Shown here piece after piece: positions 10,908 to 55,419 of a stretch of 64,000 nt of DNA. Every line of letters begins with the position of its first letter. Position 1 is the first letter of the stretch. Made by a program: the position numbers and the translations under genes. The stretch covers positions 64,001-128,000 of the IMG/VR virus record IMGVR_UViG_3300029305_006221. One strand, written 5' to 3'. The notes beneath the pieces are model-generated. The model searched no databases and was not told the DNA's origin. It was given only the letters and a program-made list of their open reading frames with translations. The DNA comes from a virus.

Positions 10908-12314
10908 ATGCACAAATCTGTTGCAACGATAAACTCTCCTGAGTTTATCAACTTAACCCCACTTGATATCAATCCTCTTATGAGCGCTTGCGAAATCAAG
11001 GTTCTTTATATTGGTGAAAATAGGAATAGATCCTATATTACCAAAGAAGTAGCCACAGATATGGCGAAAACGCTTAGAGGCGCGCCAATTGTTGGCTATT
11101 ATAAAGAAGAAAAAGAAGATTTTCGAGATCATGGAAAAGAAGTCATCATTGATGATGAGGGTATCAAGTTTAATTGCAAAACTGTTCCTTACGGTTTTGT
11201 AGCTCCAGATGCAAAGGTATGGTTCCAAGAGTTCCAAGATACCAATGATTTTGGAGAAAATATTTTGAGAGAATATCTAATGACTACTGGATATTTGTGG
11301 ACTGGTCAATTTGAAGAATGTAAGTCTGCCGTTGAGAGTGATGGCAAGCCGCAATCAATGGAATTAGATGAAGATTCTTTACAAGGACACTGGGAAACAA
11401 ATACTCGTGGCATGGATTTCTTTATTATAAATGACGCAATTTTTTCAAAACTTTGCATTTTAGGTGATGACATTAAGCCTTGTTTTGAGGGAGCTAGTGT
11501 AACAGCACTAAATGTTAGTGCGTCTTTTACTAAAGTTGATGATAACTTTAGACAAACATTATTTACGATGATGCAGGATTTAAAAACTGCATTAGAAGGA
11601 GGTCAGCAAATGATAGACACAATCGTCGATCCTGTTGTTGTCGAAGAGCCGGTTGTTGAGCCTGCTGCAGAACCTGTAGTTGAGTCAGTAACTGAGCCCA
11701 TTGATGGCGCAGAACCTTCATCTGCTGCATCTGAAGAGCCTGTTGTTGAAGAAGCGCCTATCGCTGTTGAAGAACCGGTAGCTGAGCCTGTTGCTGAGGA
11801 GCCTGTAGCTGAACCAGCGGTTGAGCCAGAGCCTATTGTAGAACCTACTCCAATAGATCCTGAACCAACTCCCGCGCCTTCTATTGAAGAACAGTATACG
11901 GCATTGCAAGAAACTCTTGAAACAGTAAGAGCTGAATATTCTGCTCTTGAGTCTCAGTATAGTGAGCTTCAATCTAGATACACAGAGCTTGAAACTGCAC
12001 ATGCAGAACTTGTTGAATTTAAAAGACAAAGTGACGATGCAAAGAAAGATGAAATGATTAATAAATTCTATATGCTTAGCGATGAAGATAAGGCAGAAGT
12101 CATTTCTAACAAAGCTAATTACACTGTAGAAGATATTGAAGAAAAACTTTCTGTAATTTGTTTCAGAAAAAAGGTCAATTTTGATTTAGAGGATTCCTCT
12201 AAAAATAATAATAAAATAGAGCAGCCAGCTGTGACATTTAATGTGTCTGATCCTGGTGCTTCAAAACCTGAGTGGCTTATTGCAGTTGAAAATGTAATGG
12301 CTAAAAATATTTAA
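10908..12314 (+). CDS. scaffolding-like or minor head protein with a Glu/Pro/Val-rich repeat linker and a C-terminal coiled coil, 468 aa
   Basis: Intact ORF with no TAG. Repeats of the EPVVEPAAEPVVE type followed by heptad-like ALESQYSELQSRYTELE. Confidence 0.5.
   Translation: MHKSVATINSPEFINLTPLDINPLMSACEIKVLYIGENRNRSYITKEVATDMAKTLRGAPIVGYYKEEKEDFRDHGKEVIIDDEGIKFNCKTVPYGFVAPDAKVWFQEFQDTNDFGENILREYLMTTGYLWTGQFEECKSAVESDGKPQSMELDEDSLQGHWETNTRGMDFFIINDAIFSKLCILGDDIKPCFEGASVTALNVSASFTKVDDNFRQTLFTMMQDLKTALEGGQQMIDTIVDPVVVEEPVVEPAAEPVVESVTEPIDGAEPSSAASEEPVVEEAPIAVEEPVAEPVAEEPVAEPAVEPEPIVEPTPIDPEPTPAPSIEEQYTALQETLETVRAEYSALESQYSELQSRYTELETAHAELVEFKRQSDDAKKDEMINKFYMLSDEDKAEVISNKANYTVEDIEEKLSVICFRKKVNFDLEDSSKNNNKIEQPAVTFNVSDPGASKPEWLIAVENVMAKNI
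11627..11880 (+). repeat. imperfect tandem ~15-nt coding repeats (GAGCCTGTTGTTGAA-like) encoding the EP(V/A)VE linker
   Basis: Visible as reiterated gagcctgt(t/a)g(t/c)tga(a/g) units. Confidence 0.6.
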
Positions 12315-12338
12315 GTTTAATTAAGGAGGACATATAGC

Positions 12339-12869
12339 ATGGCTACTATTAAGCGTATTGGATTTGGTCAGGTAGAGCCTAACCATCTATCCGCTCAAAG
12401 AAACGGTCAGGTTTACGCATCTCTCCCTTGTAACAAGGATATTAAGATCCTTGAGAATGGTCAGTTCGTAAAATATGACTATGCTACAAACGGTGGCGAA
12501 ATTAACTTTACTGGCAAGGGCGAGTGGATGCTCGTTATGAATGAAGTAAAGCTTTATGATGATTCTTGGAGAGAGTCTTACAAGGATTTTGCTCTTCAAG
12601 CTGATAATTTTAATGGTGGTGTAATGGCGCCAAGAGTTCTTAAGACTATGCCTGGTGACATTTATACTACAAACTGCCTTGAGGGCGCAAATACCTCTGG
12701 CAAGGCTGTTTTTGAAGGTACTGAGGAAATCGACGTTGGTACTGAGCTTAAGATCAATGATGAAGGATTCCTTTCTACTGCAGGAACTAGCGATATCGTA
12801 TTCCAAGTTGTTAAAGTTTACACAATGCCTGACGGTCAACAGGGCGTTAAGGTAATGCGTATTAAATAA
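12339..12869 (+). CDS. head protein, possibly a decoration or minor capsid protein, 176 aa
   Basis: Intact ORF with no TAG. Strong AAGGAGG RBS. Lies between the scaffold-like gene and the major capsid gene. Confidence 0.45.
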   Translation: MATIKRIGFGQVEPNHLSAQRNGQVYASLPCNKDIKILENGQFVKYDYATNGGEINFTGKGEWMLVMNEVKLYDDSWRESYKDFALQADNFNGGVMAPRVLKTMPGDIYTTNCLEGANTSGKAVFEGTEEIDVGTELKINDEGFLSTAGTSDIVFQVVKVYTMPDGQQGVKVMRIK

Positions 12870-12886
12870 TAAGGGAGGGAATAATA

Positions 12887-13939
12887 ATGGCATTAAATAG
12901 AAATAGTTTATTTACATTAGCACACAAAGTTGCTGACGCTAATCCTTCTGCTCCCGTTGCTTATTCTTTCGAGAATAAGAACTATAGTTATGCAGATCTT
13001 GATAACACTCTTCGTGAAGAGCTTAATAGTCTTATTGGAACGTATGCTCTTTGGAGAGAGAATCACAATATTGTATTCGCACTTATGGAGGAAATTATCA
13101 CAGATAAGCTTCCTGCTAAGGTAATGCAGCAATATGGCGCATTTGCTGAAGTTAAAACATATAGACAAGGCGAAAAACCAATCTTTACACAGAAGATCAC
13201 AGAAGCTTCTCGCAGACGTGCAAAGCAGTTTATTGCAATGCCTGCAGGACTTGCTGGTCGTTACGAAGTATTCAAACTTGATGGACGTAGCTACGAAGTT
13301 AAGACTTCTGCTATGGCTGCTGCTTGTCAGATCGCTATCGAGGAATATCTTGATGGACGTGTTGACATGGCTACTCTTATCGACATCGTTATGGAAGGTA
13401 TGGATGATAGAATCTATGCTGAGATAGCAAGTTGTCTAATTGCTGCTGTTGATACAATTCAGCCTGCAAACAAGTTTGAAGGCGCAAGTTTCATCGAAGC
13501 TGAAATGGATTCTCTTCTTGCCGTAGCTGACTCTTATGGAAATGGTAGATCTACAATTTATTGCACTTTTGAGTTTGCTTCGCAAATGCTTCCTGATAAT
13601 GCTTGGGAAAAGGGCAAGATGTCTGACTCTATGAAGGACGAGTACTGGGCAAATGGTAGACTTGCAGGTTATAAGGGTCACCAAGTAATTGTTCTTCGCC
13701 AGTCTTATGTTGACGAGACCAACTCGAAGAAAGTTATTGATCCTGCATACGCATGGATTATTCCTGGCGGAGCTGAGAAGCCTATTAAGATTGCCTTTGA
13801 AGGCGATACAATGATTAAAGAAGAGGACAATGACGACTGGTCTAAGAGCATCCATTTCTATAAGAAAGTCGGAGTTGCCACAATGATTAATAATGATATT
13901 TGTGTTTATAAGAACACATCTCTCACTATTGATAGATAA
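12887..13939 (+). CDS. major capsid protein, 350 aa
   Basis: Intact ORF with no TAG. GGGAGGG RBS. Typical size and position. Followed by a strong terminator. Confidence 0.6.
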   Translation: MALNRNSLFTLAHKVADANPSAPVAYSFENKNYSYADLDNTLREELNSLIGTYALWRENHNIVFALMEEIITDKLPAKVMQQYGAFAEVKTYRQGEKPIFTQKITEASRRRAKQFIAMPAGLAGRYEVFKLDGRSYEVKTSAMAAACQIAIEEYLDGRVDMATLIDIVMEGMDDRIYAEIASCLIAAVDTIQPANKFEGASFIEAEMDSLLAVADSYGNGRSTIYCTFEFASQMLPDNAWEKGKMSDSMKDEYWANGRLAGYKGHQVIVLRQSYVDETNSKKVIDPAYAWIIPGGAEKPIKIAFEGDTMIKEEDNDDWSKSIHFYKKVGVATMINNDICVYKNTSLTIDR

Positions 13940-13959: not shown

Positions 13960-13995
13960 GAGGGAAGTGAAGGAAACTTCCTTCCCTCTTAATTT
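13960..13995 (+). terminator. rho-independent terminator after the capsid gene
   Basis: GAGGGAAG-tgaaggaaacttc-CTTCCCTC then TTAATTT. Confidence 0.6.
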
Positions 13996-14022: not shown

Positions 14023-14598
14023 ATGATAGCTAACACAGATAAAATTAGAGTTGAAAATAGGGCTAATGCAATTGTTGCATATGTAGTTCCAGAGTCTAAT
14101 ATAATTAGACGTTTTGTTCCAGGAGAAACTAAAGAGATTACTATGAATGAATTGCGCCAAGCTGTTCAAATACCTGGAATTTATCGTTTAATTGAAAGCA
14201 ATTTAATTATTCACAGTAAGGAAGCGGCTGATGAACTTCTTCCTGGAGTAGAGCCTGAGTATTTTTATAATGCAAAAGATGTAGATTATCTACTTGAGCG
14301 CGCAACCCTTGATCAATTAAGAGATGCTCTTGATTTTGCGCCTGAAGGCGTTGTTGAACTTATTAAGGAAAGAGCTGTAAAAACTAAACTTAATGACGTT
14401 CGTAAAAGAGAAATTATTCTTGAGCAAACTAATTTCGATGTAACAAAAGCAATAGAAATTCAACATCTAAGTGAAACAGAAATAAAAACAGAAACTAGAA
14501 CAAGACGTGCTGCGCCTTTGACAGAAGAGGCTCAAAATAACGAGCCTGAGATGCCGGTTAGACGCGCTGCCGCACCTAAATATACCGTTATAAAATAA
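14023..14598 (+). CDS. hypothetical head-associated protein, 191 aa
   Basis: Intact ORF with no TAG. Ends at TAA 14596-14598. Confidence 0.5.
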   Translation: MIANTDKIRVENRANAIVAYVVPESNIIRRFVPGETKEITMNELRQAVQIPGIYRLIESNLIIHSKEAADELLPGVEPEYFYNAKDVDYLLERATLDQLRDALDFAPEGVVELIKERAVKTKLNDVRKREIILEQTNFDVTKAIEIQHLSETEIKTETRTRRAAPLTEEAQNNEPEMPVRRAAAPKYTVIK

Positions 14599-14615: not shown

Positions 14616-15092
14616 ATGCCAATAGCATCAACACCTTTTTCCGCAGTATATGATAAATTTTTATCAAAAGTAACTGATGATATGTATATGGAGCTTACTG
14701 TTGAAGAAACTAACAATCTTCTTTTTGAGTTGCTTCAAAGTGCATTACCTTGGTTTGAGTTTCCACGTGTAGATTTGAGTGCTAGAACTGATACTGAATT
14801 TTTAGTTTAGCTATCAGAAGAAGAGCTGAATATTATTGCTACTTATATGATTGTTGAATGGATGGGTCAATAGTTAGCAACTATTGAATTAATTCGAATG
14901 AAATATAGCGGTAGTGATTTTAAGTTTACATCTTAGGCAAATCATATGCATAAGCTTAAAGATTTGCAAAAAGAATATGAAAGAAAAGGATTTCATTTAC
15001 AAAGATTATACAAGCGGAGAAAAGCAGATAGTAAAGGTATTATGAGATCTACTTTTGGTAGTATTATGGAGTCTTCTTTTAAGGGGGACTAA
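14616..15092 (+). CDS. head-tail connector or adaptor-like protein, 158 aa with 3 TAG read as sense
   Basis: AGGAGG RBS, then ATG 14616. Open through TAG at 14808, 14871 and 14934 to TAA 15090-15092. Confidence 0.45.
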
Positions 15093-15095
15093 TTA

Positions 15096-15407
15096 ATGAT
15101 ACTAAAATATGGATTTGATATAGAATTAGAGGCGATTAAAGCCAATCTTGCTCGTCTTACTAATTAGATATATAAGTTATTGCCATTACGCGAAGAGGGA
15201 CATGATTGGCAAAAACCTCTTGAAACGATAATGGAAGAGCTTGCAGGAATGGATAGGTTATTTCTCGATCAATAGTCTAATCTTTATAAATTAACCTGTA
15301 AGTTAGAAGGATTGTTTTCCCTTGAAGCAAAAAGTGATTTTATGCTATATCGCGGAGTTATTTTTGAATGCTTGGGAATAATAGGAGAATTATAGAAATG
15401 TCTTTGA
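15096..15407 (+). CDS. hypothetical structural protein, 103 aa with 3 TAG
   Basis: ATG 15096 four nt after the upstream stop. Ends at TGA 15405-15407. Confidence 0.4.
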
Positions 15408-16342
15408 ATAATTTGAAAGCTAGACTTAATTATTATGGCGGCAAGTAGTAGGTAGATCGAATGATTGAGGATAAAGAGCGTAGTTTTAGAAATTCTCTAT
15501 GGCGCGCTTATCAATCAGCCACTGCAGTATTACAAGATGGTAGAGAGTTTAGATGTTTAATAAATCCAAATAAACTTAGCATGGAACTAGATGATAAAAT
15601 GTTGTCTATTCCATTTAAAGATATATGTTTAAATAAGGCGCCGGGCGCCGATGGTAAAACTTCAGTTGCCAAAGAAGATATAGGAGTAAAATGTGGAGAT
15701 GTTATTACTTGGAAAGAAAATAATACACATTGGATCGTGTATTCATAGTATTTACAAGAAGTAGCATATTTCAGAGGACTAATGAGAGAATGTGAGAATG
15801 AGCCATTAACTATTAATGGTAAAGATTATTACTATTATCTTAAAGGACCTGATGAAAAAGGTATCGATTGGCAAAAAACTAAGCATTTTGTTTTTAATGA
15901 ACTTAATTATAATATAGAAATTTATATTTCTAATGATTAGATAACAAATTAGTTCTTTCAAAGATTTAAAAAATGTAATATAAAAGGAAAACCTTATGAA
16001 GTATAGGCAGTAGATAGACTTACTACAGAAGGTATTTTAACAATTTACTTAAAAGAAGATTTTGGCAATAATTGGGAGCAAACAGATATTATTGAAGAGC
16101 CAGATGATTCTTTAATTATTGGTCCTAAAGAAGTTTATCCTTTTGATATAGTTTCATATTCTATTCAAGATTAGAGTGATGGAACTTGGTCGATTAGTAA
16201 TAAACGAGCGTCAATTATTGAATAGGATGGTTCTTTTGTAAAAATTGAAATCATCACTGGAAAAAGTGGAGATTTTAGTTTAATATATAAAAAAGACGGT
16301 ATTGAAGATATTGTAAAAAATATTAAAATACTATCATTGTGA
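15398..16342 (+). CDS. hypothetical structural protein, 314 aa with about 8 TAG
   Basis: ATG 15398 overlaps the upstream gene. Frame 2 is open through ORF-track ORF 15461..15748 to TGA 16340-16342. Confidence 0.45.
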
Positions 16343-16359
16343 GATAAAAGGAGCGTATT

Positions 16360-16944
16360 ATGAAGAGAGATTTAGTTTTAACATAGCCTATTACATCTTC
16401 ATTTTTATCTTGTGAAAAAGACACTGAATTGATATTGCGAAAACTTTTTGTTGAAAGCAGACCTTATAGCGATATTTTAAAAAGATTATTAGTGCTACCG
16501 GTTAAAGATTGTATTAGTAATTTTGAAAATATTGAATATAAGCAAAAAATTGATTCTATGTCCGTAGCAAAGCTAAGAGAAGATGGATATATAGTTCTTG
16601 AACCTCGTCTACCTTTTTACGAACATGAAGAAATAAAGTCTTATATTATATTAAGTTTTGATCATTTTACACCTAACGCAAACAATCCTGAATTTAGAGA
16701 TTGTACTGTAAATTTTGATATTATATGTCATACCAAGCATTGGGATTTAGGAAATTTTCAAATGCGTCCTTTAAAGATAGCTGGCTATATAGATGGTATT
16801 TTAAATAGAAGCAAGCTTTCTGGAATAGGAGAGTTTAATTTTCTAGGATGTAAAGAATTAGTTATTAATCAAGACTTTTCTGGATATTTATTATCATATA
16901 GGGCTATTCATGGATCAGATGACTAGATAATAAATGAAAAATAA
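16360..16944 (+). CDS. hypothetical structural protein, 194 aa with 2 TAG
   Basis: AAAAGGAG RBS, then ATG 16360. Includes ORF-track ORF 16429..16926. Ends at TAA 16942-16944. Confidence 0.5.
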
Positions 16945-17683
16945 TTTACTTTTACTCTCTGGAGCAGATATCCCTTTTATCGAAGGTACCGCAACAATTC
17001 ATTAGCCCACTATTTATGAAATTTCATTAATTGGAGAAGAAGCATTATTTTCAGGCTGTGAATTATTACGGTTTTCAAAAGATATATTATCAACTGAGGA
17101 CAAAACTAGATTATCTAATTATACAGATTTTAATATATTAATGTCAATAATGAATGATAACAGTGCCTCAGTTAAATCTAATGTATCTGATGCAAAACAA
17201 GTATTATAGTTAATTTTTCCGCAATATGAAGTAGTGATTAATCAAAAAGAAATTTTACTACTTGATGTAAATGATAAATTTACGCTATGTGGACAAATTA
17301 ATGATATTAATTTTCTTTAGTTTAAAGAAGTCATTTCAGAGATATTTTGTTTGAAATAGACTTCTTCTACACAAGATTATAATGTGTAGGGAGAATTAGC
17401 GAAAAAGATTGCAGAAAAGTTTAAACGCAGACAACAATAGCTTGCCGAGTTATCTCCAAAGTCTGATAAAAAAATCTCAATCTTTAGTAGATATATTTCT
17501 ATACTAACAGTTGGAGAGCATAAAGATATGAATTCTTTTATGAAGTACACTGTTTATCAACTTTTTGACGAGTTCTAGCGTTTTTAGCTTAAAATGGGTT
17601 ATGATATTTATTTTAAAGCGCGAATGGCTGGGGCAAAAGATATGAAAGAGCCTGAAGATTGGATGAAAGACATCCATGAATAA
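16934..17683 (+). CDS. hypothetical structural protein, 249 aa with about 8 TAG
   Basis: ATG 16934 overlaps the upstream stop. Frame 2 is open to TAA 17681-17683. Confidence 0.45.
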
Positions 17684-17732: not shown

Positions 17733-18635
17733 ATGAAGTTTGGTGTACGCGAAATATGCGATGTCGTATTTAAGGCTAAAGCAAAAGTCAAAATTGGTGG
17801 AATTGAGTTCCAACCTGGACAACCTGTTCTTTATATTGACTCTGCTAAGACATCTACAATTGAGGGCGCAGCTACTACAGTATATGCTCAGGGTGGCCGC
17901 GGAAATACTCGTTTAATTGCTTGGGAAGGCGAAAAAACTCTTACATTTACTGTTGAAGATGCACTTCTTTCTCCTATGGGATTTGCAATTCTTTCTGGAG
18001 CTGGTCTTTTAAAAGGAACAGATGCAGAGAAGGTAAATGTTCATACCACAACTATGGCTTATGCAGATGATGATGGTAAGATTGATCTTGCTGATGCTCT
18101 TGGCGCAGATAGCTTTAGTTCTGATCCAGATGCGAAGATTTATGTTCTTCCTGTTGCAGCAGATGGATCTTTAAATGGTAAACCTGTTCTTGGTGTTAAA
18201 GGAGAGGAAGCAGATGCTAAAACTGTTACTGCTACTGGCGTAAAGGGAGCTTGTTTTGTAGATTATTATATTGAGAAGACAAGCGATAAGGTTTCTGAGC
18301 TTCAAATAGATGCGGAAAACTTTGCTGGTTACTACTACGTAGAGGCTAGTACGCTCTTTAGACGTCAAGACAATGGTAAGGATATGCCTGCTGAAATTAC
18401 ATTCCCTAATGTTAAGATTCAGTCTAACTTTACATTCTCTATGGCTTCTACGGGAGATCCTTCAACATTTACATTCACAATGGATGCAATGCCTGGATAT
18501 ACCTATTTTGAACCTACTCGTAAAGTTCTTTGCGCAATTCAGATCGTTGAAGATACTTCTGATATCGAGGATATTAAGACAGTATTCCCTGTTAATAGTG
18601 AAGATAACTTTGCAGACGATAACTCAATAGTATAA
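17733..18635 (+). CDS. major tail protein (tail tube), 300 aa
   Basis: Intact ORF with no TAG. AAGGAGG RBS. Followed by a strong terminator and then by genes leading into the tape measure. Confidence 0.55.
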   Translation: MKFGVREICDVVFKAKAKVKIGGIEFQPGQPVLYIDSAKTSTIEGAATTVYAQGGRGNTRLIAWEGEKTLTFTVEDALLSPMGFAILSGAGLLKGTDAEKVNVHTTTMAYADDDGKIDLADALGADSFSSDPDAKIYVLPVAADGSLNGKPVLGVKGEEADAKTVTATGVKGACFVDYYIEKTSDKVSELQIDAENFAGYYYVEASTLFRRQDNGKDMPAEITFPNVKIQSNFTFSMASTGDPSTFTFTMDAMPGYTYFEPTRKVLCAIQIVEDTSDIEDIKTVFPVNSEDNFADDNSIV

Positions 18636-18701: not shown

Positions 18702-20381
18702 ATGAGTGCATTAAGTGATTACATTCATTTACATAGAGAAAACTATTTAGAGCATGGTACTTTTAGAAATACCGATAATAATAGTAATGATGGAAAAGAA
18801 GCTTTTTAGAGGTTTGCTAATCAAATTTAGAATCGTGCAACTCATTATTTAAATGATGAAACAAGATTGCGTTAGCTTGAAGAAACTTTTAATGAAGAAA
18901 GAAAAAGAAAAATAGAAGCTTTAAAAATTTTAGCTAAAACTCCTGCAGACTATACTAAGTTTATTGAAGCTGTTTTAAAAGCAGCAGAGCTAAAAAAATT
19001 TAATCCAAATGATATAGCAAAATGGCTCACAGTAAATGAAAACAATAATACTTTAAAATTAAATGAAATTTTTGAAAAAGCAGATACAACACAAAGAATT
19101 ACAATTCCTAATATTTCTAGTAAAATTAATTTTTCTTATATCGATACTCTTTTATCTCATATAAAGATTGGTCATCAAATGATAAAAATGCTACAAGATT
19201 AGAATACAAAAAATCTTTTAAGAGATAGATTAAATTTTTTAGCTGCTTCTTTATATCGTATAAAATAGCAGGCTTTAAAAGAAGGAAATAGTTTACGATC
19301 TTTTTATTCAATTAACGATAATAAAATTACTGGTTTATTAGGAGAAGGACAAGTTTTTTTAGACAAAGGTAAAGTAGCAATAAGCGCACCTATGAATAGA
19401 ATTATTAATAATGAAATTATTTCAATTTCTAAAACCGCAAGACTAAGTTCTGTTATGAGTAATATCTTGGGAGCAACAGAAGAAGTTCTGGGAACAATTG
19501 GCGCACCGCTTTTATAGGATATAGCAAATGAAACAATGGATGGGTTTTTAAACAATATAAAATATATATTGAATAATTAGAATATTACTAAAGGCTAGTC
19601 CACTTCATCTATGAACTTTAAAATAGATGATATTGTTTTTAATAAATACGAATTACAAAAAGATAAATATAAAAATTATGTTACAAAACTTGCTGATGGC
19701 ACTCTTACATTGGAGTTAAATTATGATACTAAAAACAAAGCTGACTTTTCTATAAGTGTAGATGGCAATAATATAGGGGTAAGTTCAAAAGCTATTGATT
19801 TAAGTAAAACAGGATACACTAATAAAAAAGGAGAGTATATTCCCGCATAGGTAACTTTACAAAGTGGAACTAATTTATTGGCTTACTTATTAAAAGCCCA
19901 AGAAATTATAGATAAAACTGGAACCCATTTTTTAAATGCTTATGCGACAGGATCCTTAACCGATGAAGCAGACAAGGCCTTAACTATCTTCTTGGTCTAT
20001 ACTGCATTAACAGGAGATATTCTAAAAAAAGAAGGCAATGCTGGATTACTATATATTTATGATACCAGTAATAAATTACCTGATGGTAGTAATAGGGTTC
20101 ATTTTTTTAGCATTGGTTCAATTATATAGTCATTATTAAAAAATGAAAATCCAGAAGATGTGGTATTATTTTCTCCGTCTTTGCAAAGTATATCTTAGGA
20201 ATTACAAAAAGCAAACGAAGAAGTAGATCCAAAAGACTGGGAGTTAGAAGAGAAGAGTAAGATTGGCGCAGCAATTTCTGCTCGTCATACAAAAGTCTTA
20301 GGAGAAGCTAGATTAACAATTTTAAGTATAGCTTTAACTAATGATCATATAAGAAGTTTAATTAATAATAAAATTACTTGA
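18702..20381 (+). CDS. hypothetical tail protein, 559 aa if all 11 in-frame TAG are read as sense
   Basis: AAGGAGG RBS, then ATG 18702. Frame 0 is free of TAA and TGA up to TGA 20379-20381. Joins ORF-track ORFs 19611 and 19878. Confidence 0.45.
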
Positions 20382-20406
20382 CTTCTTAAAAATTTTTTAT
20401 TATAAT
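20378..20406 (+). promoter_or_regulatory. sigma-70 consensus promoter (TTGACT-17-TATAAT)
   Basis: acTTGACTtcttaaaaattttttatTATAATata. -35 = 20378-20383, -10 = 20401-20406. Confidence 0.65.
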
Positions 20407-20447
20407 ATAATTAAGAAAACTAAGTCGAGATAAAAGGAGATAATAAT

Positions 20448-20981
20448 ATGAATTTTACAGAAATGAATTTATCTATTAATAATAATGTTAATACTATTAA
20501 TTTTAATGATAATATTATTATTAATGTATTAAATTATTTACCAATTAAAGATAAGAATGACCTTATTTCAATAGCTCTTTAGAATAGCGAAGAGAATGGA
20601 GTATATAATTTAATTAAATTACATATGTATTTTAATATGTATTTAACTATACTTTATACAGATATTGAATTTGATAATGAAATGCTTGAAAATAATATGG
20701 ATGAAGTTTATAATATTCTTAAGAGTGCTGGCATTATTGATGCAGTTAGAAATGCTATTCCTGAAAGCGAGCTTACTTATCTTGAGTCAACTCTTGATCA
20801 AACAATGTGGAATAAAATGAATCACAAGAATACCTTGGCTTCCGTTATCAATAATTTTATTGAGAATTTGCCAGTTAATGCGGAGACTGCTAAGGGTATT
20901 ATAGAGAACTTTGATCCTGCACAATTTCAAAAAATAATGGAATTTGTTCAAGCGGCGAATGGAAATAGACCTATTAATTAA
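20448..20981 (+). CDS. possible tail assembly chaperone, 177 aa with 1 TAG
   Basis: AAAAGGAG RBS, then ATG 20448. Includes ORF-track ORF 20625..20981. Lies directly upstream of the tape-measure gene. Confidence 0.4.
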
Positions 20982-21084
20982 TTGGACTAAATAAGAAAAT
21001 ATATTTACCCTTATTATTATATTAATAATAAGGGTATTTCTATAGGTATGGAAATACAAAAGAGAAACAAGGAGGAATATTTAA

Positions 21085-30588: not shown

Positions 30589-30593
30589 TAATA

Positions 30594-30620: not shown

Positions 30621-30642
30621 AAGAGAGAAAAGGAGAGATAAT

Positions 30643-35592: not shown

Positions 35593-35680
35593 TTGATTTT
35601 AAATAAAAATAATATAATTATAGGAGTTAAGAAGTGCTATATTTCTTAACTCCTAGTATTGGAAGACAGGAGGATATATA

Positions 35681-36010
35681 ATGGTAATTCAAAAAAACCT
35701 GAACTTTGTTTCAAATACTACAATTCCTGTTTTATCAAAGACATTTATTAATGCTTCAGGAGACGTATTATCTTTAGAGATAAAGGGTAATGGAGTTATT
35801 TACATTGATGGGCGCCTATAGGATGACTCAGATTGGTTCTCAATTGCGGGAATCAATTTAAGTGATTTTTCAGTGTCTAAAGATGGATTCACTAAACCTG
35901 GACTTTATGAGATAGGCGTCATTGGCATTAGACAACTTCGCGCGCGTGTTGAGGCTGTTCAAGACAATGTCTCTGTTCATGGTTAGATAATCAGCTCGGA
36001 GGAAACTTGA
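35681..36010 (+). CDS. hypothetical tail protein, 109 aa with 2 TAG
   Basis: GGAGGA RBS, then ATG 35681. Ends at TGA 36008-36010. Confidence 0.45.
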
Positions 36011-36011
36011 T

Positions 36012-36896
36012 ATGGCGATAGATACGATTGCAAGAGGCTTAGCCACTTCTATTTATGGGCCAGACGGCAGAATTGCCGCAAATAAAATGCCTAAAGTTGA
36101 AATTACAGATACTACTGGATTCACTTCGATAGGTAAGTTAACAGATCCTAATTTAGTTGCTGGTAAAACCTCAGAGGAAATTTTATTAATGATGCTCTTT
36201 GGTATCGTAACGCCTGCGCTTAAGGCGCCTAGCGTGCGCCTCGTATTAAATGAAGAAATTTCTTATTTAATAGTTGGAGAAAAGAAGACTATTAATGGAG
36301 TTGTTTAGTTTGATCGAGGATCGATTGAACCAGCTTATGGCACATCTGGCAAGCGCGCAGGTCTTCCTACTTCTTATCAGGTAAATGAAAGTGCTTATTC
36401 ATCAAATGATTTATCACTTTCTTTTTCTATTGATATAATTCCCGTTCCTGGAGAGAATATTCTTTCTTACGCAGTATTTTATAACGCCGGAGAATAGCCT
36501 CTTAATAGTATTGGTTAGCCTTTTGAGGCGCCATTGCCTGCAGGAATGGTATCTGGATCAATTTCTGTTGATGGGGTTTATTAGCTTTATTCGGCCGACC
36601 ACGTCCCAATGAGTTTTAATTGGTTTGAAGATACTGATGGAGAAGGATATCAATCGATTTTCTTATCTGAAGGAAGCGGAACAAAGCAAGCTTTCGCGCT
36701 CGATTCAAGTGTTTCTGTTATAGGCTTTAAAGCTATTGATCCTATTACGAAAGAATGGATTTGGTTAGGCGGAGAAGGACCAGAAGTTTCACTATCTTTC
36801 TTTGATATTGCAGAAGACAAAGAAAAAAATCGTAAAATCTATACTCATAACTATTTTACAGTTGGAGAAAGAGAATTACGAATTTATGTAGCTTAA
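36012..36896 (+). CDS. hypothetical tail protein, 294 aa with 4 TAG
   Basis: Joins ORF-track ORFs 36012..36308 and 36609..36896 in frame 0. Confidence 0.5.
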
Positions 36897-36907
36897 GGAG
36901 GTAAAAT

Positions 36908-37453
36908 ATGGCTAGATATAAAGGTATTTTTAAGGCTGCCGCAAACTACGAGCCATAGATTGCTGCACCTTTTGATGCAAGAATGTTAGTTGATGCGAAA
37001 GCAGATCTAACAGATAGGAGCATTTGGCAATAGAGTAATGGAGATGTCTGGGTTTACTCAGGCATGATCGTAGCTGTTGCGAATGATGAAAATAGCGAAA
37101 ATAATGGCATTTATATGCTATTAAATAGCGCGCGCTTTGAAGAAGAGTCATCTTGGCGAAAGATGTCAGATGATAGTAGTATTGCCGCGCTTGATGCTGC
37201 TATTAAAGAATTACAAGAACAGATTAAGAATATTGAAATCTCTGGAGAAGGTAGTGTATCTATTGAAGTAGATACAATGGATGATCTTCCTAAAATTGGA
37301 GATAGCGATACTACTTATTATGTTAAAGAAAACTTAAGTATCCAAAGATGGAACGAAGCTACACAATCTTATTTAGCTTTTGGCGGATAGGGTAGCGCGC
37401 CTGAATTGGATATAAAAATTATTTACGGAGGAAATGCAAATGTCACAGATTAA
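36908..37453 (+). CDS. hypothetical tail protein, 181 aa with 3 TAG
   Basis: AAGGAGG RBS, then ATG 36908. Includes ORF-track ORF 37064..37390. Ends at TAA 37451-37453. Confidence 0.45.
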
Positions 37454-38786
37454 TACTAGAATTGTATTAAGAAATGATACCAAGGCGAATTGGGAAGCAG
37501 TCAAAGATACTGCTACTCTTAAACCTGGTGAGTTTGGTGTTGAGACCGATACTGGTTTATTCAAAATCGGTAAAGAAAAGTCTGAAGGGGTTCTTTGCAC
37601 TTGGGCAGAACTTGAGTATGCAAATGATATTCCTGAGATTGATCTTTCTGACGTAACCAACGATGTTCAAGTCGTTGAAGGCACTATTGACAATCTTGTT
37701 GCTGGCAAGGTTGTTGGAGATATGGGTATTGTTAAAACTCCTCTTTATGAAGGAGCTACAACTTATACCTACACAGCTTATGTATGGAATGGCGAAGCAT
37801 GGGCGGCAATGGATGGAAACTACAATGCAGCTAATGTTTATTTTGACCAAGATTTAACTTATACTACTTCCGTAGGTGCGCTTAAACTTGCAAGCGGAAA
37901 GAACTCTGATACTTATGCGGCTAAGGGTAAATCTTTAGAGGAAGTTATTAGACGTATTATGGCAGAGACTATTGCGCCTACAATTACCCAGGCTTCCTAT
38001 GGAATGAGCGCAAGCTACACTGCAGATAATGGCACTGAGGTTGGTAGTAAAATCACTGCTCTTAAGTGGGATGGTACATTTACAGATGGTAGCTATAGCT
38101 ATGGTAGATCTTCTACTGCAGATGGTGGCGCTGGCAATGTTTCTACAACAAAAGGTGCAGGATGTACTGCAACTTATTCAATGGAATGTGATCAAGCTGG
38201 AACTACATCAACCCCTGCTACAGTAGATGGAACTTGGACTCTTACAACTCCTTTCTAGATAACTTCTACTTCAGAAGCTACTGTTGGTAAGATTACAACT
38301 CATTGTGTTATTAGTGATGCTAAATATTGGCCTATTAATAATATAAATGAAGTTGTCGATGGTAAGCTTAGTGGCAAGACTGTTGATAAGGAAAGCACTG
38401 TTAAAGTTACTGGATTCCGTGGATGGTTCTGCGGCTGGAAGAATGGAACAAACGCACTTGCTGATCCTACTGCTATTACAAGTGATCAAGTTCGTGCACT
38501 TACTAAGAAAAATGGCTCTTGGGAGAGCTCAATGAATGTATCACAAATGAAACAGATGTTCTTCTTGGCGCCTGCTGGTAAGGGTTATAAACCTGCTATT
38601 AAAGACTCTAAGACAGACGCGCCTCAGACAGTTGAAGGACCTGTTACAGTATATGTAAAGGGTGCTAATAACTATGTAGCTGCAGGTGATGAGACCACTA
38701 ATGGCGGTATGGCTTATGATATGTGGTATGTAAACAACGCAGCTGCTGCTTCTGGTAGCGCTACGCTTAATATAACAAAGGCTTAA
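37434..38786 (+). CDS. tail fibre protein with a HylP/tail-fibre-type N-terminal domain, 450 aa with 1 TAG
   Basis: N-terminus MSQINTRIVLRNDTKANWEAVKDTATLKPGEFGVETDTGLFKIGKE. ORF-track ORFs 37434..38258 and 38532..38786 are joined in frame 0. Confidence 0.6.
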
Positions 38787-38799
38787 GGAGGAATAAATA

Positions 38800-41691
38800 A
38801 TGTCGATTAGAGATGATTTTTTTGCGGCTCAAGCTAAGGCTTCTTTATGGGACGTAGCCGTCTCGATAAAGAGAGGTAATCCGCTTCCTCTTGATGCGAA
38901 TTCGGTATTCAAGGCTTACGGAACAGTAGGCGGAGCAGATTACGCTGGTTCATTACTTGAATATGTAACCGATAATCCTGTTGCTTATCCTGGTCAGATT
39001 TGCGCAGTTGTAGGAGCAGACGCTACTACTATTTATTACTTAGACCAAAATCTTGCTATTCAACCCGTTGGAATTATTCCTACTGGCGATGGTAAATCTA
39101 TTGATGTTGCTGAGGGTGGAGAAATTTCTCTTCATGGTTTTGGCGATTTAACCGCTTCTCACGTTGGATACCTTCCTCGTGTAAAGAAAGTTGTAGATGT
39201 AGCTGCGGCTGAGGATGTTGAAGAGGTATTTCATCTTGAAATTGAATGGGCGCCTGTTTCCGCGATCGTTGAAGGTGATGGTAATAGCGTAACTGAGGTT
39301 GCTGCTGGTTGCCCTTGCATTAACGTTGAAGATAAGGCAGAGGAAGATTTTGAAGGTCATAAATATGAAATTTCTCTTAACCTTTCTGCCGAAGAAGGCA
39401 ATATCCTTAAGGAAAAAGAAGACGGACTTTATGCAGAGGTTATTATTCCTGATGTCCCTGAGTATGCTGTAAAAGCAGATGAAAGAGCTGAAGGCGCGAC
39501 TGAAACTACTTATCACTTAACAAAAGACGGTACCAATGTTGATGTTGCAATTGTAGTTCCTGATGCTTATAATGATGAGGCGCTTGCAGGACGCGTTGGC
39601 GCACTTGAAGGAAAAGTAGATACTGGCGATAAGAAAGTTAGTGTTTATGTTGCTGAGCAAATTGCAAATGCAGAAGTCGGTAAATTAACAAAGATTATTA
39701 TTGATTCTGTTACTGAAGATGGCAAGGTAGTAATTGATGGAGAGACAACTGACCCTATTGAGCATATTATCTATATGCTTAAGGTTGAATCTGCTACTGG
39801 CGACATGTATAAGGAATACATGGTTATTGGCGGAGAGCTTGTTCAAACTGGCGACACAACTACAGATTTAAGCGGATATGTTACTAAGACTACTAAGATT
39901 AATGGTAAGGCGCTTGAAAGTGATATTACACTTGAATCTGATGATATTAACGTTTCAGAAAATGCTGAAACTCCAAATGCATTTGAAGGCTAGACACTTA
40001 CACAAGCTCTTAATTCTCTTTCTGAGACTGCCAATACGGCAAATAGCAAAACTGCTGAAGATATTATTGTTGAGACTGAGTCTAATGGAACTATAAAAGA
40101 TGCGATTGTTGCATTAAAAAATTCTACTATTAATGGAAAAACATTTAACGATAATCTTGGTATCGGCTCCATTTGGAGTGAAGATTAGACTAATGGAGTA
40201 ATTCTTTACGGAACGGATATTACAGTTGACGAAAACAATGATACTCGTACTATTGCAAAAGCTATCGAAGATGCAGAAGGAGCCGTTGAAACTTTAGCAA
40301 CAAATGTTGAAAGAGACTATGCCAAGAAAGCGACTACTCTGGCTGGTTATGGTATAACAGATGCTTATACTAAAACTGAAATTGATAATAAGATCGGTAC
40401 TCCTGGAGTTCCTGAGCTTAAAGATGGTGAAGGCAATACTACTCAAGAAGCTGTAGATGGTACAGGTATCTTTGCTTCTGCGTACTCTAAAGCAGAAGTT
40501 AATGCATTGCTTGATGCAGTAAGCGGAGGATCTTCTGAAACTGCCGCATCTGTTAAGAGACAATTGGATGAATATAAGACATCTAATAATGAACGCGTTT
40601 CGAATATTGAAAACCAGGTTGGTCATGATGTAAATGGTGAAACTCCTGCAACAGGACTCTTCCTTGAAGTAGATCAGGCGCGCGCTCAGGCTGATACAGC
40701 GCTTAATAATGCGCAAGCTGCTAACCAAGCAGTAACTCAACTTGCTGAAGGTCAGGTTGCAACAAATAAGTCCAATATTGAAAATCTTCAGGCACTTGTC
40801 GGTGCAATTGGAGACGGAAAAGATACCACTCTCGCAGGAAAGATTGGCGCCCTTGAGGCACACGATCAAGCTCATACTGCAGAATTTAATCTTCTTTCTG
40901 GTAAGGTAAATCAAAATAGTGAGGACATTGGTAAGAGAGCTCTTGCAGATAATGTTTATACAAAGGGTGAAGTTGATGCTAAACTTGTTCCTCTTGCACT
41001 TGCGGCAAATGTATATAGCAAGACTGACGCAGATGATAAGTTCCTTGCAAAAGCTGACGCGTATGATGATACTGCAGTTAGAGGTTTAATTACAGCTGAA
41101 GAAAACCGTGCTAAGGGAGAAGAAAATAAGCTTCAATTAGCAATAGATCATATCTATAAGGCTGGAAATGAAGAGCTTGGAACTCAAGATGAAGGTCTTC
41201 TTGCAACTGCTATTGACGATATTAAACAAAATAGTGCAAATATTACTACGCTTGTTGGCGCCGATCAAGCAAAATCAGTAAGAACAATTGCTCAAGAAGA
41301 GATTGCTTCTCAACTTGCAACAGCACCTGAAGCATTCGATACTCTACTTGAAATGGCGGAATGGCTCGGCACTCATAGCACAGATGCAGTTAATATGGAT
41401 AACCGTATTAAGGCTAATGAGGATAAGCTCGTTGGTATCGGCGGAGAAGATTAGCCTGCTACCGTACTCGATGCCATTAGAGCTGCTGAGTACACTCTTC
41501 CCGTAGCAACAGCTGAAGCACTTGGTGGTATCAAGTCTGCGGCTGATGTTGATGGCGTAGCAGTTGTTAATACGGTTTATGTAGCTAACGACGGTAAGGC
41601 AGATGTTAAGGCAATTAGTACTGATATTCTTGTTAACGGCGAGGCTGAACTCGTCCTTAATGGTGGTAATGCAGCAGGCGCAACAGCTTGA
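38800..41691 (+). CDS. long fibrous tail fibre protein, 963 aa with 3 TAG. Extended coiled-coil and Ala-rich regions
   Basis: AAGGAGG RBS, then ATG 38800. ORF-track ORFs 38800..39993 and 40507..41454 are joined in frame 1. Ends at TGA 41689-41691. Confidence 0.6.
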
Positions 41692-41794
41692 TTGTAAACA
41701 CCTAATATAAACAATAACAGGCGCCTTTGGGCAACCCTGGGCGCCTGATAACCATAAATTAAAAAATTTTAATTACGAAAAGGAGAAAATTATT

Positions 41795-43693
41795 ATGGCA
41801 TTTGCTGATAATATTCTTAATGTAAGACTTCAACTTAAGTATGACTCTCTTGAAAATTGGGCAAGAGAAAATCCCCTTCTTAAAGCCGGTGAGGTTGCGA
41901 TTGCATATCTTCCTCCTAAGGGCAATGGAGAAGCTCCTGCTGCTACTTCTGAAGCAGTATTAATGAAGGTTGGTCCTGGTAACTTTAACAGTCTTCCTTT
42001 CACAAGCGCTCTTGCAGCTGATGTTTATGGATGGGCTAAGGAGAACGAACTTAAGTTCTCTAAAGCAGGCACAGGTAATGTTGTTTCTGGCATCGAATGG
42101 GACGCTACTCTTAATGGAAACAAGGGTGGTATTAAATTTACGACTGCTTCTGTTGCAACCTCTGAAGGATTAGAAGAAGTTCAAAATGATATCGCTGCAA
42201 TTGAAAAAGATATTTCTGATAATCGCGCAGCTTGGGCAAAGGATGATAATACAACTTATACTTTTGCTAAATCTGCAGATGGCAAGGGAATTACAATTAC
42301 TCCTTCTGAAGGTAATGGTTCTACAATTTCTTTTGCTTTCTTAACGCAAGCAGAAATTGAAGCTCTTAATTATCTTGTAAAAGCAGATATTACAACCGGT
42401 AGTGCTAATGGTACAATCGCTGTTGAAGGTGCTGATGTTGCAGTTAAGGGTCTCCAGGACGCTGCTTATACCACAGTATCTGCGCTTAATGCAACAGCTA
42501 AGGGATATGCTGATGCAGTTGAAGCTAAGATTCCTACCGAACTTGGCGTTATGTCTGTTGCTGAAGGTAATGATACAATCACTATTGGTGGTACAGCTGC
42601 TAATCCCACTATTGTGGTAACAGCGAATAAGTTTGATGCATACGGTGCAGCAGCGGCAGTTCAAACTGGTGTTGAAAATGGAACAGTTAAAGCTAAAGTT
42701 GCAGAAACGGCAGATAAAGTTGCCAACTCTTTAACTGTAGGTAGTAAAACTTATAATGGTTCTGAAGCAATTTCAATTACTGCAGCAGACCTTGGCTTAT
42801 CCAATGCTCTTCACTTTGTTGGCACATCTTATCCTTCAAACCCTGTCGCAGGTGATGTAGTTCTTGATGGTAATAAGGAATATGTTTATGATGGCTCTAA
42901 GTGGATTGAACTTGGAGATGAAAGTAGTCATGCTTTGAATACCATCACTATCACTGGAACAGATGGTCTTGAAGGCGGAGGTAATCTTACTGAAAATAGA
43001 ACTTTAAAAATTGCGGATAGCGGTGTAACTACTGTTAAGATTGCAAATGATGCAGTAACCGCTGATAAACTCGCCGATGCTATTAATACAGATATCGCCA
43101 AAGGTGTAACTGCTCATGGCTGGGGTAACCATGCCAATGCAGGTTATGCTAAGACTGCTGATCTTGGTGATCTTGCAACTCTTGATACAATTACTTCTGA
43201 AAAAGTAACTGATTTTGAAAATGCCGTCAACAACACTAACATAGGCGGAACTAATGAGGGTGTAACTGTTGCTAGCGGCCTTAACAATGCTCTTGACAGA
43301 GTTACTACTCTTGAAAGCAACAAGGTTGATAAGACAACTACTGTAAACGGTAAGGCACTTTCTGAGAGCATAAATATTTATGCAGAAAATATTCATGTTG
43401 AGTCTGATTCAGTTATGGATAGAGGCGTTACAGTTTATGACTCTCTTGAGGCAATTGCTAAAACAACGATTAATGGTGAAACAATTCTTGAAAACTTTAG
43501 TGCTGGTGATTATGCTACATCTAGACAGTTTGTTCTTAATGGTGAAACTCTTAAGATGTCTGGAACAGATACAACAACTCTTAATGCGGCAATTACTGCT
43601 CGTCAGACAGAGGCTCAGGTTAATGCTCTTATCGAGGCAGCACTTGGCGCAATTACAACAATTAACTGTGGTTCTTCTACAGAGGTTATATAA
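41795..43693 (+). CDS. tail fibre protein with a HylP-type N-terminal domain, 632 aa with no TAG
   Basis: Intact ORF. N-terminus MAFADNILNVRLQLKYDSLENWARENPLLKAGEVAIAY. Confidence 0.6.
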   Translation: MAFADNILNVRLQLKYDSLENWARENPLLKAGEVAIAYLPPKGNGEAPAATSEAVLMKVGPGNFNSLPFTSALAADVYGWAKENELKFSKAGTGNVVSGIEWDATLNGNKGGIKFTTASVATSEGLEEVQNDIAAIEKDISDNRAAWAKDDNTTYTFAKSADGKGITITPSEGNGSTISFAFLTQAEIEALNYLVKADITTGSANGTIAVEGADVAVKGLQDAAYTTVSALNATAKGYADAVEAKIPTELGVMSVAEGNDTITIGGTAANPTIVVTANKFDAYGAAAAVQTGVENGTVKAKVAETADKVANSLTVGSKTYNGSEAISITAADLGLSNALHFVGTSYPSNPVAGDVVLDGNKEYVYDGSKWIELGDESSHALNTITITGTDGLEGGGNLTENRTLKIADSGVTTVKIANDAVTADKLADAINTDIAKGVTAHGWGNHANAGYAKTADLGDLATLDTITSEKVTDFENAVNNTNIGGTNEGVTVASGLNNALDRVTTLESNKVDKTTTVNGKALSESINIYAENIHVESDSVMDRGVTVYDSLEAIAKTTINGETILENFSAGDYATSRQFVLNGETLKMSGTDTTTLNAAITARQTEAQVNALIEAALGAITTINCGSSTEVI

Positions 43694-43706: not shown

Positions 43707-43736
43707 AGGGTGGGTAATTCTACCCACCCTCTTTTA
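43707..43736 (+). terminator. rho-independent terminator
   Basis: AGGGTGGGTA-attc-TACCCACCCT then CTTTT. Confidence 0.7.
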
Positions 43737-48164: not shown

Positions 48165-48205
48165 AAACAAGATTTAACAGAACCCCAATTTTTTACAATG
48201 GAGGG

Positions 48206-48520
48206 ATGATAATGACTACAACTATTATATTATTGATAATAACGTCCATTTTTAACATAATTGATTATTGCCAAACAGCATACGCCATAGGACTTTTTGG
48301 ACTTGGCGTTGAGCTCAATCCAATAGGGCGCCTTATGTTTGCAGCCGATTGTGGATGGCTAAAATTAATTATTATGCCAATTTTATTGTTAGCTCTTGGC
48401 CTTATTATTAAAGCTGATAAGAGGCTGTCTTGGGAGGCTTGGCTTGTGACAATATTGTATCTTATAGTTATTATAAATAATTTTTATATGTTAATACGAG
48501 CGGGAGTATTTTTCTTCTAA
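48206..48520 (+). CDS. small polytopic membrane protein, 104 aa with 3-4 predicted TM helices. GtrA/flippase-like or holin-like
   Basis: Hydrophobic segments IILLIITSIFNII, IIMPILLLALGLII and LVTILYLIVIINNFYML. Immediately downstream of the GT2 gene. Confidence 0.45.
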   Translation: MIMTTTIILLIITSIFNIIDYCQTAYAIGLFGLGVELNPIGRLMFAADCGWLKLIIMPILLLALGLIIKADKRLSWEAWLVTILYLIVIINNFYMLIRAGVFFF

Positions 48521-48550
48521 AATAAAAATTCTATATTGGAGGATTAGATT

Positions 48551-48670
48551 ATGATGTGTTTTACCTGTCCTATATGTATCGCTTGTGCGATTATTACAGC
48601 AGTTTCTACTATGACTATGGGCGCCTTATGTGCGTGCTATAAGCATTTGAAGAAGAAAAACAAAGTATAA
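48551..48670 (+). CDS. small Cys-rich single-pass membrane peptide, 39 aa
   Basis: GGAGGA RBS. Reads MMCFTCPICIACAIITAVSTMTMGALCACYKHLKKKNKV. Followed by a terminator. Confidence 0.35.
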   Translation: MMCFTCPICIACAIITAVSTMTMGALCACYKHLKKKNKV

Positions 48671-55418: not shown

Positions 55419-55419
55419 T

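Follow-up and report, generated by a model that had tools for sequence, protein, structure and literature searches.

Why do some genes in the late operon of a recoded gut phage contain no TAG at all, when their neighbours use it freely as a glutamine codon? The question is raised by a stretch of 64,000 nucleotides (positions 64,001 to 128,000 of IMG/VR virus record IMGVR_UViG_3300029305_006221), called the window below, which means the whole of that stretch. It holds the late operon of a siphophage with the TAG to Gln recoding (code 15), and its G+C is 35% across the 64 kb. The genome is ~136 kb (135,988 bp). Its source contig is JGI 3300031555, Ga0318466_10002506, which carries the window in reverse at 2025-66024. 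The original prediction, made from the letters of the window, offered two causes that do not exclude one another. Highly expressed genes might avoid a codon read by a limiting suppressor tRNA, or the TAG-free genes might be a recent import from a standard-code phage or host. We argue that both causes hold, but each for a different block, and that the boundaries between the blocks were misplaced. The likely scenario is that selection keeps TAG out of the head genes, the gene at 17733 and the proximal fibre genes, and that recent exchange explains the distal receptor-binding and glycosyltransferase cassette.

The standard code shatters the rightward genes between ~4.5 and 54 kb. Reading TAG as sense raises the coverage by open reading frames (ORFs) from 49.9 to 80.8 kb. 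It restores a tape measure of 3,167 amino acids (aa) at 21085-30588, a 1,649-aa tail protein, the large terminase (7070-8815) and the portal (9308-10891). Nine relatives, standard-code ones included, have mainly CAA, CAG or TAG at the sites aligned to TAG in the window, so TAG encodes glutamine (Gln). The leftward genes at 57091-63955 (- strand) have 0 TAG in 73 Gln codons. They include NrdD, dCTP deaminase/dUTPase and guanylate kinase and are presumed to be early. Judged by its sequence, the phage is distant kin of phAss-1 and of SPbeta-like and Enterococcus EF1-like phages.

The TAG-dense late genes contain 198 TAG in 10,297 codons, which is 42% of their Gln codons. The TAG share of Gln codons spans 0-55% within this one late operon. 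Counting gene by gene upholds the central observation that had been made here. There is no in-frame TAG in 10908-12314, 12321-12869, 12887-13939, 14023-14598 or 17733-18635, nor in any gene of the island at 41795-48670. The sizes given for the TAG-free sets, about 1,200 codons for the head genes (1,191 in the four genes of 10908-14598) and about 2,200 for the island, are also right. Other densities need correction. A rate of one TAG per 40-50 codons had been quoted for the dense genes, but TerL and the portal have about one per 75-83, roughly half that density. The long fibres at 36012..41691 had been called TAG-dense, and this is true of 36012-37453 (7 TAG in 475 codons) but not of 37434-41691 (4 in 1,413, depletion P = 1e-5).

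One can ask if the pattern is chance or a gene-calling artefact. Some single genes hold only 6-8 Gln codons, and for these a zero count is weak. When Gln codons are pooled and the rate of the TAG-dense genes is assumed, a complete lack of TAG has a binomial probability of 1e-11 in the head block with 17733 and of 1e-15 in the island. TAG use across 36 late genes is heterogeneous (chi2 = 107, df 35, P = 4e-9). All of the TAG-free genes are complete under both codes, as intact ORFs in the standard code too, and the pattern recurs in independent relatives. We give chance or artefact practically no weight. Off-frame TAG occurs in the two TAG-free sets at 0.95x and 1.20x expectation, so the absence belongs to the reading frame. 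This normal off-frame count rules out avoidance of the TAG trinucleotide itself, for example to escape restriction.

The other Gln codons differ between the two classes of genes as well. CAG/(CAA+CAG) is 0.13 in TAG-dense genes vs 0.37-0.39 in TAG-free ones, and TAG and CAG jointly make up 50% of Gln codons in the former vs 37-39% in the latter. TAG seems to have largely replaced CAG in the TAG-dense genes. phAss-1 goes further: its capsid gene has 15 CAG and no CAA.

TAG use follows codon bias. Across the genes of the window, the TAG share of Gln codons falls along the first principal component (PC1) of synonymous codon usage, computed with Gln codons excluded (rho -0.67, P = 7e-5). PC1 separates preferred codons (CTT, AAG, TTC, CCT, ATC) from avoided ones (TTA, AAA, TTT, ATA). 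The same relation is seen in phAss-1 (rho -0.76, and +0.90 against an index of AT-rich codons), and the correlation is negative as well in L002, L005, L008, L020, L022 and L023, which makes seven recoded relatives with phAss-1. No gene of the window is more strongly codon-biased than the capsid gene (12887-13939). The codon usage of the head set cannot be told apart from that of the fibres at 37434-41691 (chi2/df 1.05), and both stand far from the TAG-dense genes, with values of 5.7 and 6.2 that no control block reaches. These proximal fibres use TAG for 4 of 39 Gln codons, and their orthologues in recoded L020, L022 and L023 have 0-2 TAG. Their homologues in standard-code L027 and L028 carry the same CAG-rich bias. 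The mosaic fibre gene that follows, 41795-43693, is also strongly biased (PC1 0.61, chi2/df 4.0 vs TAG-dense genes).

The depletion is old in the head genes. The capsid gene has 0 TAG in recoded L001-L005 (79-85% capsid identity), in L008 (52%) and in phAss-1 (45%), and 0 TAG in all eight orthologues examined, recoded or standard-code. Scaffold-like orthologues have none in L001-L007 and phAss-1 and 5 in L008. Orthologues of 12321-12869 have 0-2, those of 17733 have 0-1, and those of 14023 have 0 in nearly all cases. The portal, terminase and connector genes that flank these head genes in L001-L005 and L008 are TAG-rich. The five orthologues in phAss-1 (head genes and 17733) have no TAG beside a tape measure gene with 110.

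This persistence bears on a scenario where import alone explains everything, with all TAG-free blocks, including the head genes and 17733, having come recently from a standard-code genome. The TAG-free genes are indeed richer in G+C (0.36-0.41 vs 0.26-0.39) and in CAG, and the standard-code relatives L006, L007 and L010 belong to the same capsid family. But the excess of G+C sits at codon positions 1 and 2, which means amino-acid composition. G+C at third positions (GC3), which the original prediction had proposed to compare for the island, barely differs. Nucleotide identity to recoded L001-L005 is a uniform ~79% over the TAG-free head genes and the TAG-dense terminase and portal, so the head block is not a recent import. 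The head genes also lack TAG in at least seven recoded relatives, the most distant of them with 45% identity in the capsid. Between the window and its recoded relatives, 27 of the 29 changes at conserved Gln sites of the head set are CAA<->CAG switches and only 2 involve TAG, hardly any TAG turnover at all. For the TAG-dense genes the figures are 102 changes with TAG and 26 CAA<->CAG switches among 128 (Fisher P = 1.5e-13 vs the head set). Import as the only cause is therefore very improbable.

These patterns point to TAG being kept out of the head genes, 17733 and the proximal fibres by sustained selection, probably against costly suppression. The portal gene upstream contains TAG, and no promoter or terminator was seen to set the head genes apart from it, which makes different timing an unlikely cause for them. 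Avoidance in highly expressed genes, one of the two causes first proposed, thus stands for the head genes and 17733. It also covers, unexpectedly, the proximal fibres from 37434 to ~42700. It fails for the distal cassette.

The distal cassette needs another line of reasoning. The original prediction put its left boundary at the GGCGCC hairpin (41718-41747). That hairpin is stable, but it has no U-tract and no property shifts there. The shift in TAG use and codon bias begins near 37434, and there is a recombination break inside 41795-43693, near 42715. A terminator-like hairpin at 43707-43730 had been missed and is a better terminator than the GGCGCC hairpin. The terminator proposed at the end of the island is genuine.

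The fibre gene at 41795-43693 is a mosaic. Residues 1-304 match recoded relatives at 79-82%, residues 295-422 are 71% identical to standard-code phage L027, and residues 472-632 are 100% identical to contig L026. The near identity with L026 continues downstream, with 1 nucleotide difference in the 2,869 of 43208-46076, and then drops to ~73% through the LRR_5, GT2 and DUF5658 genes. Further downstream L026 has different genes (0 TAG in 26 Gln codons) that are like those of standard-code phage L028. Recoded L020 has unrelated receptor-binding genes in the same slot, between a conserved fibre N-terminus and conserved tail genes like those at 49320 and 51020. The GT2 gene is 82% identical in nucleotides to that of standard-code L027, and its product is 89% identical to those of L026 and of standard-code L155. 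About 27 of 36 loci with GT2 homologues in genome collections are standard-code, including the closest full-length one, L155 (89% aa). L027 and L028, whose code is clearly the standard one, have cassettes with LRR_5 followed by GT2, and standard-code L157 has homologues too.

The comparisons point to the cassette at ~42.7-48.7 kb being young in this genome and derived from a pool dominated by standard-code phages. Recent import thus survives only for this distal part and not for the head genes, and the idea of a bacterial host as donor has no evidence supporting it. An island nucleotide search against GenBank phages gave no match. Nor did back-translations of the two downstream tail proteins find any in viral contigs, and that of the island fibre gave short motif matches only.

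Could selection alone explain the whole island at 41795-48670, linked to expression as it is proposed to be for the capsid gene? The strong bias of 41795-43693 agrees with this, and the slot is TAG-poor in other recoded relatives (1 of 31 Gln codons in L020, 4 of 38 in L022). The genes at 43801-47151 do not. Their codon usage is ordinary (PC1 about -0.1; chi2/df 1.32 vs TAG-dense genes, with 14.5% of control blocks as extreme), and still they have 0 TAG in 40 Gln codons. Genes that are unbiased yet free of TAG are not explained by codon-bias selection. The original prediction had said that it would be refuted if the island did not differ from its neighbours in codon usage apart from TAG, and this is the case for 43801-47151 but not for 41795-43693. 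The cassette at 43801-48520 as a whole has 0 TAG in 54 Gln codons, and 47184-48670 has 0 in 16. Receptor-binding proteins and glycosyltransferases are normally low-copy, which also speaks against selection here. Homologues in recoded L168, L184 and L156 carry in-frame TAG. The GT2 gene of L184 has 4 and the LRR proteins of L168 have 12, 5 and 5, so these families tolerate TAG. We consider selection alone quite unlikely. The GT2 homologue of L159 was dropped as an example of TAG within the family, its two TAG being outside the part that aligns.

Another scenario makes 43801-48670 a transcription unit of its own, translated where suppressor tRNA is lacking, be it early in infection or from a prophage. 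It could then serve, for instance, in surface glycosylation or exclusion. A GT2 gene with small membrane proteins does recall lysogenic-conversion modules. Terminator-like hairpins flank the unit (43707-43730 and 48685-48713) and there are weak promoter-like sites at 43751-43802. The presumed early genes here are TAG-free, which fits a published model (bioRxiv 10.1101/2021.08.26.457843). However, the promoter match is 9/12, and such matches are common in this AT-rich window (91 found vs 71.5 expected). The first genes of the cassette encode virion proteins of the fibre type, with an Mtd_N-like adaptor domain in common with the upstream fibres. The 4 in-frame TAG of the L184 GT2 homologue mean that suppression is needed there. 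We regard a unit independent of suppression as unlikely. A Gtr-type lysogenic-conversion module was considered and rejected: the membrane protein beside GT2 is DUF5658, and there is no GtrA match.

The gene order within the cassette is not peculiar to this phage. A BspA-type LRR_5 gene, then GT2, then a small protein recurs in many phages, both standard-code and recoded (L026, L027, L028, L155-L157, L168). The small protein is DUF5658 in the window and L026, and L027 has a CBM_5_12 protein nearby. On this gene-order evidence, the recurrence suggests functional coupling of the receptor-binding protein with the glycosyltransferase. Many cassette-bearing contigs of 90-176 kb (among L155-L190) were binned in metagenome-assembled genomes (MAGs) of Paludibacteraceae, Methanobrevibacter, Acutalibacteraceae, Lachnospiraceae and Treponema. 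These contigs look like phage mis-binned into MAGs, so their titles are unreliable as host assignments. The habitats in the titles of related MAG contigs are mainly ruminant and other animal guts.

Several points weigh against the joint explanation by selection and exchange. We infer that the purged genes are highly expressed from their codon bias and the identity of their proteins, and the strength of the Shine-Dalgarno sequence, an independent proxy for expression, is unrelated to TAG use (rho 0.15). The explanation does not account for tail fibres that match the capsid gene in codon bias. The correlation of TAG with bias is a loose one: at modest bias, the scaffold-like gene (PC1 0.25) and 14023 (0.21) have no TAG, and the terminase has 7 at a similar 0.16. 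Contig L026 (JGI 3300024270, Ga0257091_10040976) is only 8 kb and fixes neither its own genetic code nor the direction of transfer. The cassette has no compositional sign of foreign origin, since 43801-47151 matches its TAG-dense neighbours apart from Gln codons, and the case for import rests therefore on comparative evidence. Lastly, neither a suppressor tRNA (CUA) nor a release-factor gene was found in the window plus ~17 kb of flanks (~81 kb of the ~136-kb genome). ARAGORN finds no tRNA in the window or the right flank, only tRNA-Thr in the left flank, and no tRNA with anticodon CUA in 13 related loci. In phAss-1 it finds two suppressor tRNAs in the 100 kb of the record scanned. A pattern built from these two matched 118 viral contigs, and this lineage is absent among the matches listed.

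The joint explanation would work as follows. TAG would be a third Gln codon that is tolerated but disfavoured. UAG decoding by a phage suppressor tRNA is likely slower, or in competition with release factor 1, and the yield lost to each TAG would then scale with the copy number of the protein. Genes under strong synonymous-codon selection would purge TAG as they purge other non-preferred AT-rich codons (TTA, ATA, AAA, TTT). The purged genes would be the capsid gene, its scaffold-like and accessory neighbours, the gene for the 17733 protein and the fibres from 37434 to ~42700. The hypervariable slot at ~42.7-48.7 kb, made up of the distal end of a fibre and the receptor-binding/GT2 cassette and closed by the 48685 terminator, would be refilled by recombination. 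Its gene pool would be carried mostly by standard-code phages, and the DNA would arrive without in-frame TAG. The present cassette may have been resident for too short a time to have gained any.

More tentatively, and with somewhat less than even confidence, we propose that the difference in code acts as a one-way valve. TAG-free DNA could enter a recoded phage at no cost, and genes containing TAG could not leave. TAG-free islands would then mark recent imports, and TAG density would be a clock of residence time. Separately, the removal of TAG throughout the lineage from the virion proteins made in greatest amount would show that amber suppression is still costly.

If our reading is right, a recoded stop is not equivalent to the codons that it mimics, and its use follows rules. 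The current model would be refined, since besides a switch between early and late genes there is a gradient within the late genes, and such a gradient implies a fitness cost of suppression. Where a gene caller divides a phage genome into blocks by code, it will take TAG-free late genes for standard-code ones. In recoded phages, a segment without TAG can point to a host-range cassette that was recently exchanged. One prediction is that a recoded phage given TAG codons in its capsid gene should have a smaller burst size. If natural amber suppression is costly in this way, its efficiency becomes a measurable constraint on phage gene expression.

Table 1. Genes and elements of the late operon in window coordinates; functions of promoter-like sites and of the hairpin behind the capsid gene are putative.
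Feature	Position	Strand	Remarks
Sigma-70 promoter-like site	4529..4557	+	12/12 consensus, TG extension; head of rightward late operon
Packaging gene	5846-7066	+	6 TAG
Large terminase	7070-8815	+	7 TAG; PHROG match
Packaging-region gene	8890-9246	+	1 TAG
Second sigma-70 promoter-like site	9243-9271		12/12 consensus; before portal gene
Portal	9308-10891	+	7 TAG; PHROG match
Scaffold-like acidic repeat protein, YonD_N family	10908..12314	+	0 TAG in 15 Gln codons
Small head-associated protein between scaffold-like and capsid genes	12321..12869	+	0 TAG
Major capsid protein, YonB family (PF27364), HK97 fold	12887..13939	+	0 TAG in 10 Gln codons; PC1 1.01
Stable hairpin 3' of capsid gene, possible attenuator	13960..13992	+	-20 kcal/mol, z -4.4
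Head-region protein	14023..14598	+	0 TAG in 6 Gln codons
Five connector/head-tail genes	14616..17683	+	24 TAG in 1,028 codons
Virion structural protein, probably tail tube	17733..18635	+	0 TAG in 7 Gln codons; strong codon bias; phrog_2729
TAG-dense tail block	18702..37453	+	TAG counted per gene
Tape measure	21085-30588	+	69 TAG; 3,167 aa
1,649-aa tail protein	30643-35592	+	38 TAG
Small fibre-base genes	35681-37453	+	9 TAG
Proximal long fibre, Mtd_N N-terminal domain	37434-38786	+	TAG-poor
Proximal long fibre	38800-41691	+	TAG-poor
GGCGCC hairpin without U-tract	41718..41747	+	-22 kcal/mol
Mosaic fibre gene	41795..43693	+	0 TAG
Terminator-like hairpin	43707..43730	both strands scored	-18.2 kcal/mol, then U4; between mosaic fibre and cassette
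Mtd_N-like adaptor protein	43801-44589	+	0 TAG
Two partly paralogous receptor-binding-cassette proteins	44589-45689, 45708-46076	+	0 TAG
BspA-type LRR_5 protein	46096-47151	+	0 TAG
GT2 glycosyltransferase (PF00535)	47184-48164	+	0 TAG
DUF5658 membrane protein	48206-48520	+	0 TAG
39-aa membrane peptide	about 48552-48670	+	0 TAG
Intrinsic terminator closing cassette	48685..48713	+	-18.7 kcal/mol, U-rich tail
TAG-dense genes resume	48788..53564	+	25 TAG in 1,501 codons
Tail proteins conserved with recoded relative L020	49320-51005, 51020-52888	+	within 48788..53564

Some of the gene identities deserve comment. An AlphaFold2 model of the capsid (pLDDT 67) matches HK97-fold capsids and encapsulins in Foldseek (E 4e-6, prob 1.0), with low TM-scores of 0.25-0.39. 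The 17733 protein, which had been called the major tail protein, is a virion structural protein, and the tube label is tentative. Its matches to tail-tube structures in the PDB are weak (E 0.005), and similar proteins in Lactococcus 949-group and Enterococcus phages are labelled 'structural protein'. A single-sequence AlphaFold model (pLDDT 42) did not strengthen its tail-tube identity, and a five-sequence profile gave spurious matches only against the PDB. A HylP-N domain had been assigned to the fibre at 41795-43693, but there is no Pfam match in it and the repeated N-terminal domain is Mtd_N-like. This kind of N-terminus appears to open three successive fibre-type genes, 37434-38786, 41795-43693 and 43801-44589. 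The match to Mtd_N is above the cut-off for 37434 (E 4e-7) and below it for 43801 (E 3e-3), and for 41795 it is a likeness by eye. Common N-termini of this type would suggest alternative fibres that dock at one site.

The kinship of the phage is clearest in its capsid. An identical copy of the capsid gene is found on a JGI contig, whose genes are annotated as YonB, YonD_N, YonG_N and YomW in precomputed Pfam results. These are Pfam families named for proteins of Bacillus SPbeta. The nearest described tblastn matches of the capsid are an unannotated human-faecal contig (57%), phAss-1 (45%) and Enterococcus EF1-like phages (37%), and there are also matches to SPbeta-like Clostridioides and Bacillus phages. 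The capsid family has more than 7,600 database proteins and holds both standard-code (L006, L007, L010) and recoded members. The window shows what is expected of the SPbeta-like and phAss-1 type: a tape measure of more than 3,000 aa (3,167 aa, and 3,149 aa in phAss-1) in a genome of ~130-140 kb, and a YonB-family HK97-fold capsid with YonD_N, YonG_N and YomW neighbours.

Beyond the tail genes, a rightward group at 54653-56480 is mostly without TAG. It encodes a Cys-rich 106-aa protein with a CGCGCF end, a low-complexity protein rich in Gly, Ser, Tyr and Met, and a small HExxH metallopeptidase-like protein, whose matches to DUF6782, Peptidase_M78 and SprT-like families are all sub-threshold. 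A RuvC-like resolvase gene at 56499-57008 (- strand; DUF3882 E 6e-5, RuvC E 1e-3) uses TAG for 6 of 7 Gln codons, a share that no other gene of the window reaches. Encoded on the opposite strand, it adjoins the TAG-free nucleotide-metabolism genes. The NrdD gene at 59276-62293 (- strand) carries an intein. Just past the end of the window, at 2162-7250 of L033, a DNA polymerase III alpha gene is apparently split by a GIY-YIG endonuclease gene. The JGI gene calls for this genome use the standard code and are fragmented, and the calls for the related ENA and Logan contigs (L020, L022, L023) read through TAG. Protein lengths in the databases are therefore not comparable across sources.

How does this compare with known systems? 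Recoding of stop codons is established in gut phages, where the recoded codons are concentrated in late structural and lysis genes (10.1101/2021.08.26.457843; PMC7886860; 10.1101/356790; PMC9523058). Borges et al. propose that selection enriches or depletes recoded stops by gene family (bioRxiv 10.1101/2021.08.26.457843). Our phage is like these in that TAG means Gln, that presumed early genes are TAG-free and late genes use it, and that one capsid family has both standard-code and recoded members. It is unlike them in that the contrast lies within the late operon, with the capsid, scaffold-like, 17733 and proximal fibre genes on one side and the portal, terminase, connector and tape measure genes on the other. 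In-frame stops in capsid genes served as evidence for recoding in crAss-like phages. Capsid genes can hold recoded stops there, so avoidance in the capsid is specific to this lineage and not universal. Lasting TAG depletion in capsid-type genes within a recoded late operon is described nowhere in the phage-recoding literature that we surveyed, and neither is the sharing of TAG-free cassettes with standard-code phages.

The closest system to compare is phAss-1, a code-15 phage of 135,976 bp with three tRNA-Sup(CTA) genes, for which a Phassvirus group of ~135-kb siphophages was proposed (Babkin et al. 2023, PMC10607447). That paper counts the ORFs that contain TAG and gives no distribution at the level of genes (PMC10607447). 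The two genomes are almost equal in length (135,976 vs 135,988 bp), the phAss-1 tape measure is of similar size (~3,150 aa), and the virion genes of both are recoded from TAG to Gln. The capsids are homologous at 45% identity, the head genes and the 17733 orthologue are TAG-free, and receptor-binding genes vary among relatives in both cases. The relationship is distant, however. The tail block of phAss-1 precedes its terminase gene, and phAss-1 has suppressor tRNAs that were not found in the ~81 kb of this genome.

Two more general comparisons can be made. As in classical translational selection, one main codon axis sets capsid-type genes apart and a costly codon falls along it. The difference is that the disfavoured codon is a reassigned stop, and its cost may include premature termination beside slow decoding. 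As in mosaic fibre cassettes, there is a conserved N-terminal anchor with the distal parts swapped and the break inside a fibre gene, a near-identical segment is found in another context, and relatives have different cassettes in the same slot. The exchange here is unlike those in that it crosses a genetic-code boundary, and the absence of TAG becomes a visible mark of where a segment came from or how recently it arrived. The finding refines what is known of phage recoding, in a phage that newly joins a group already described, rather than being a new kind of system.

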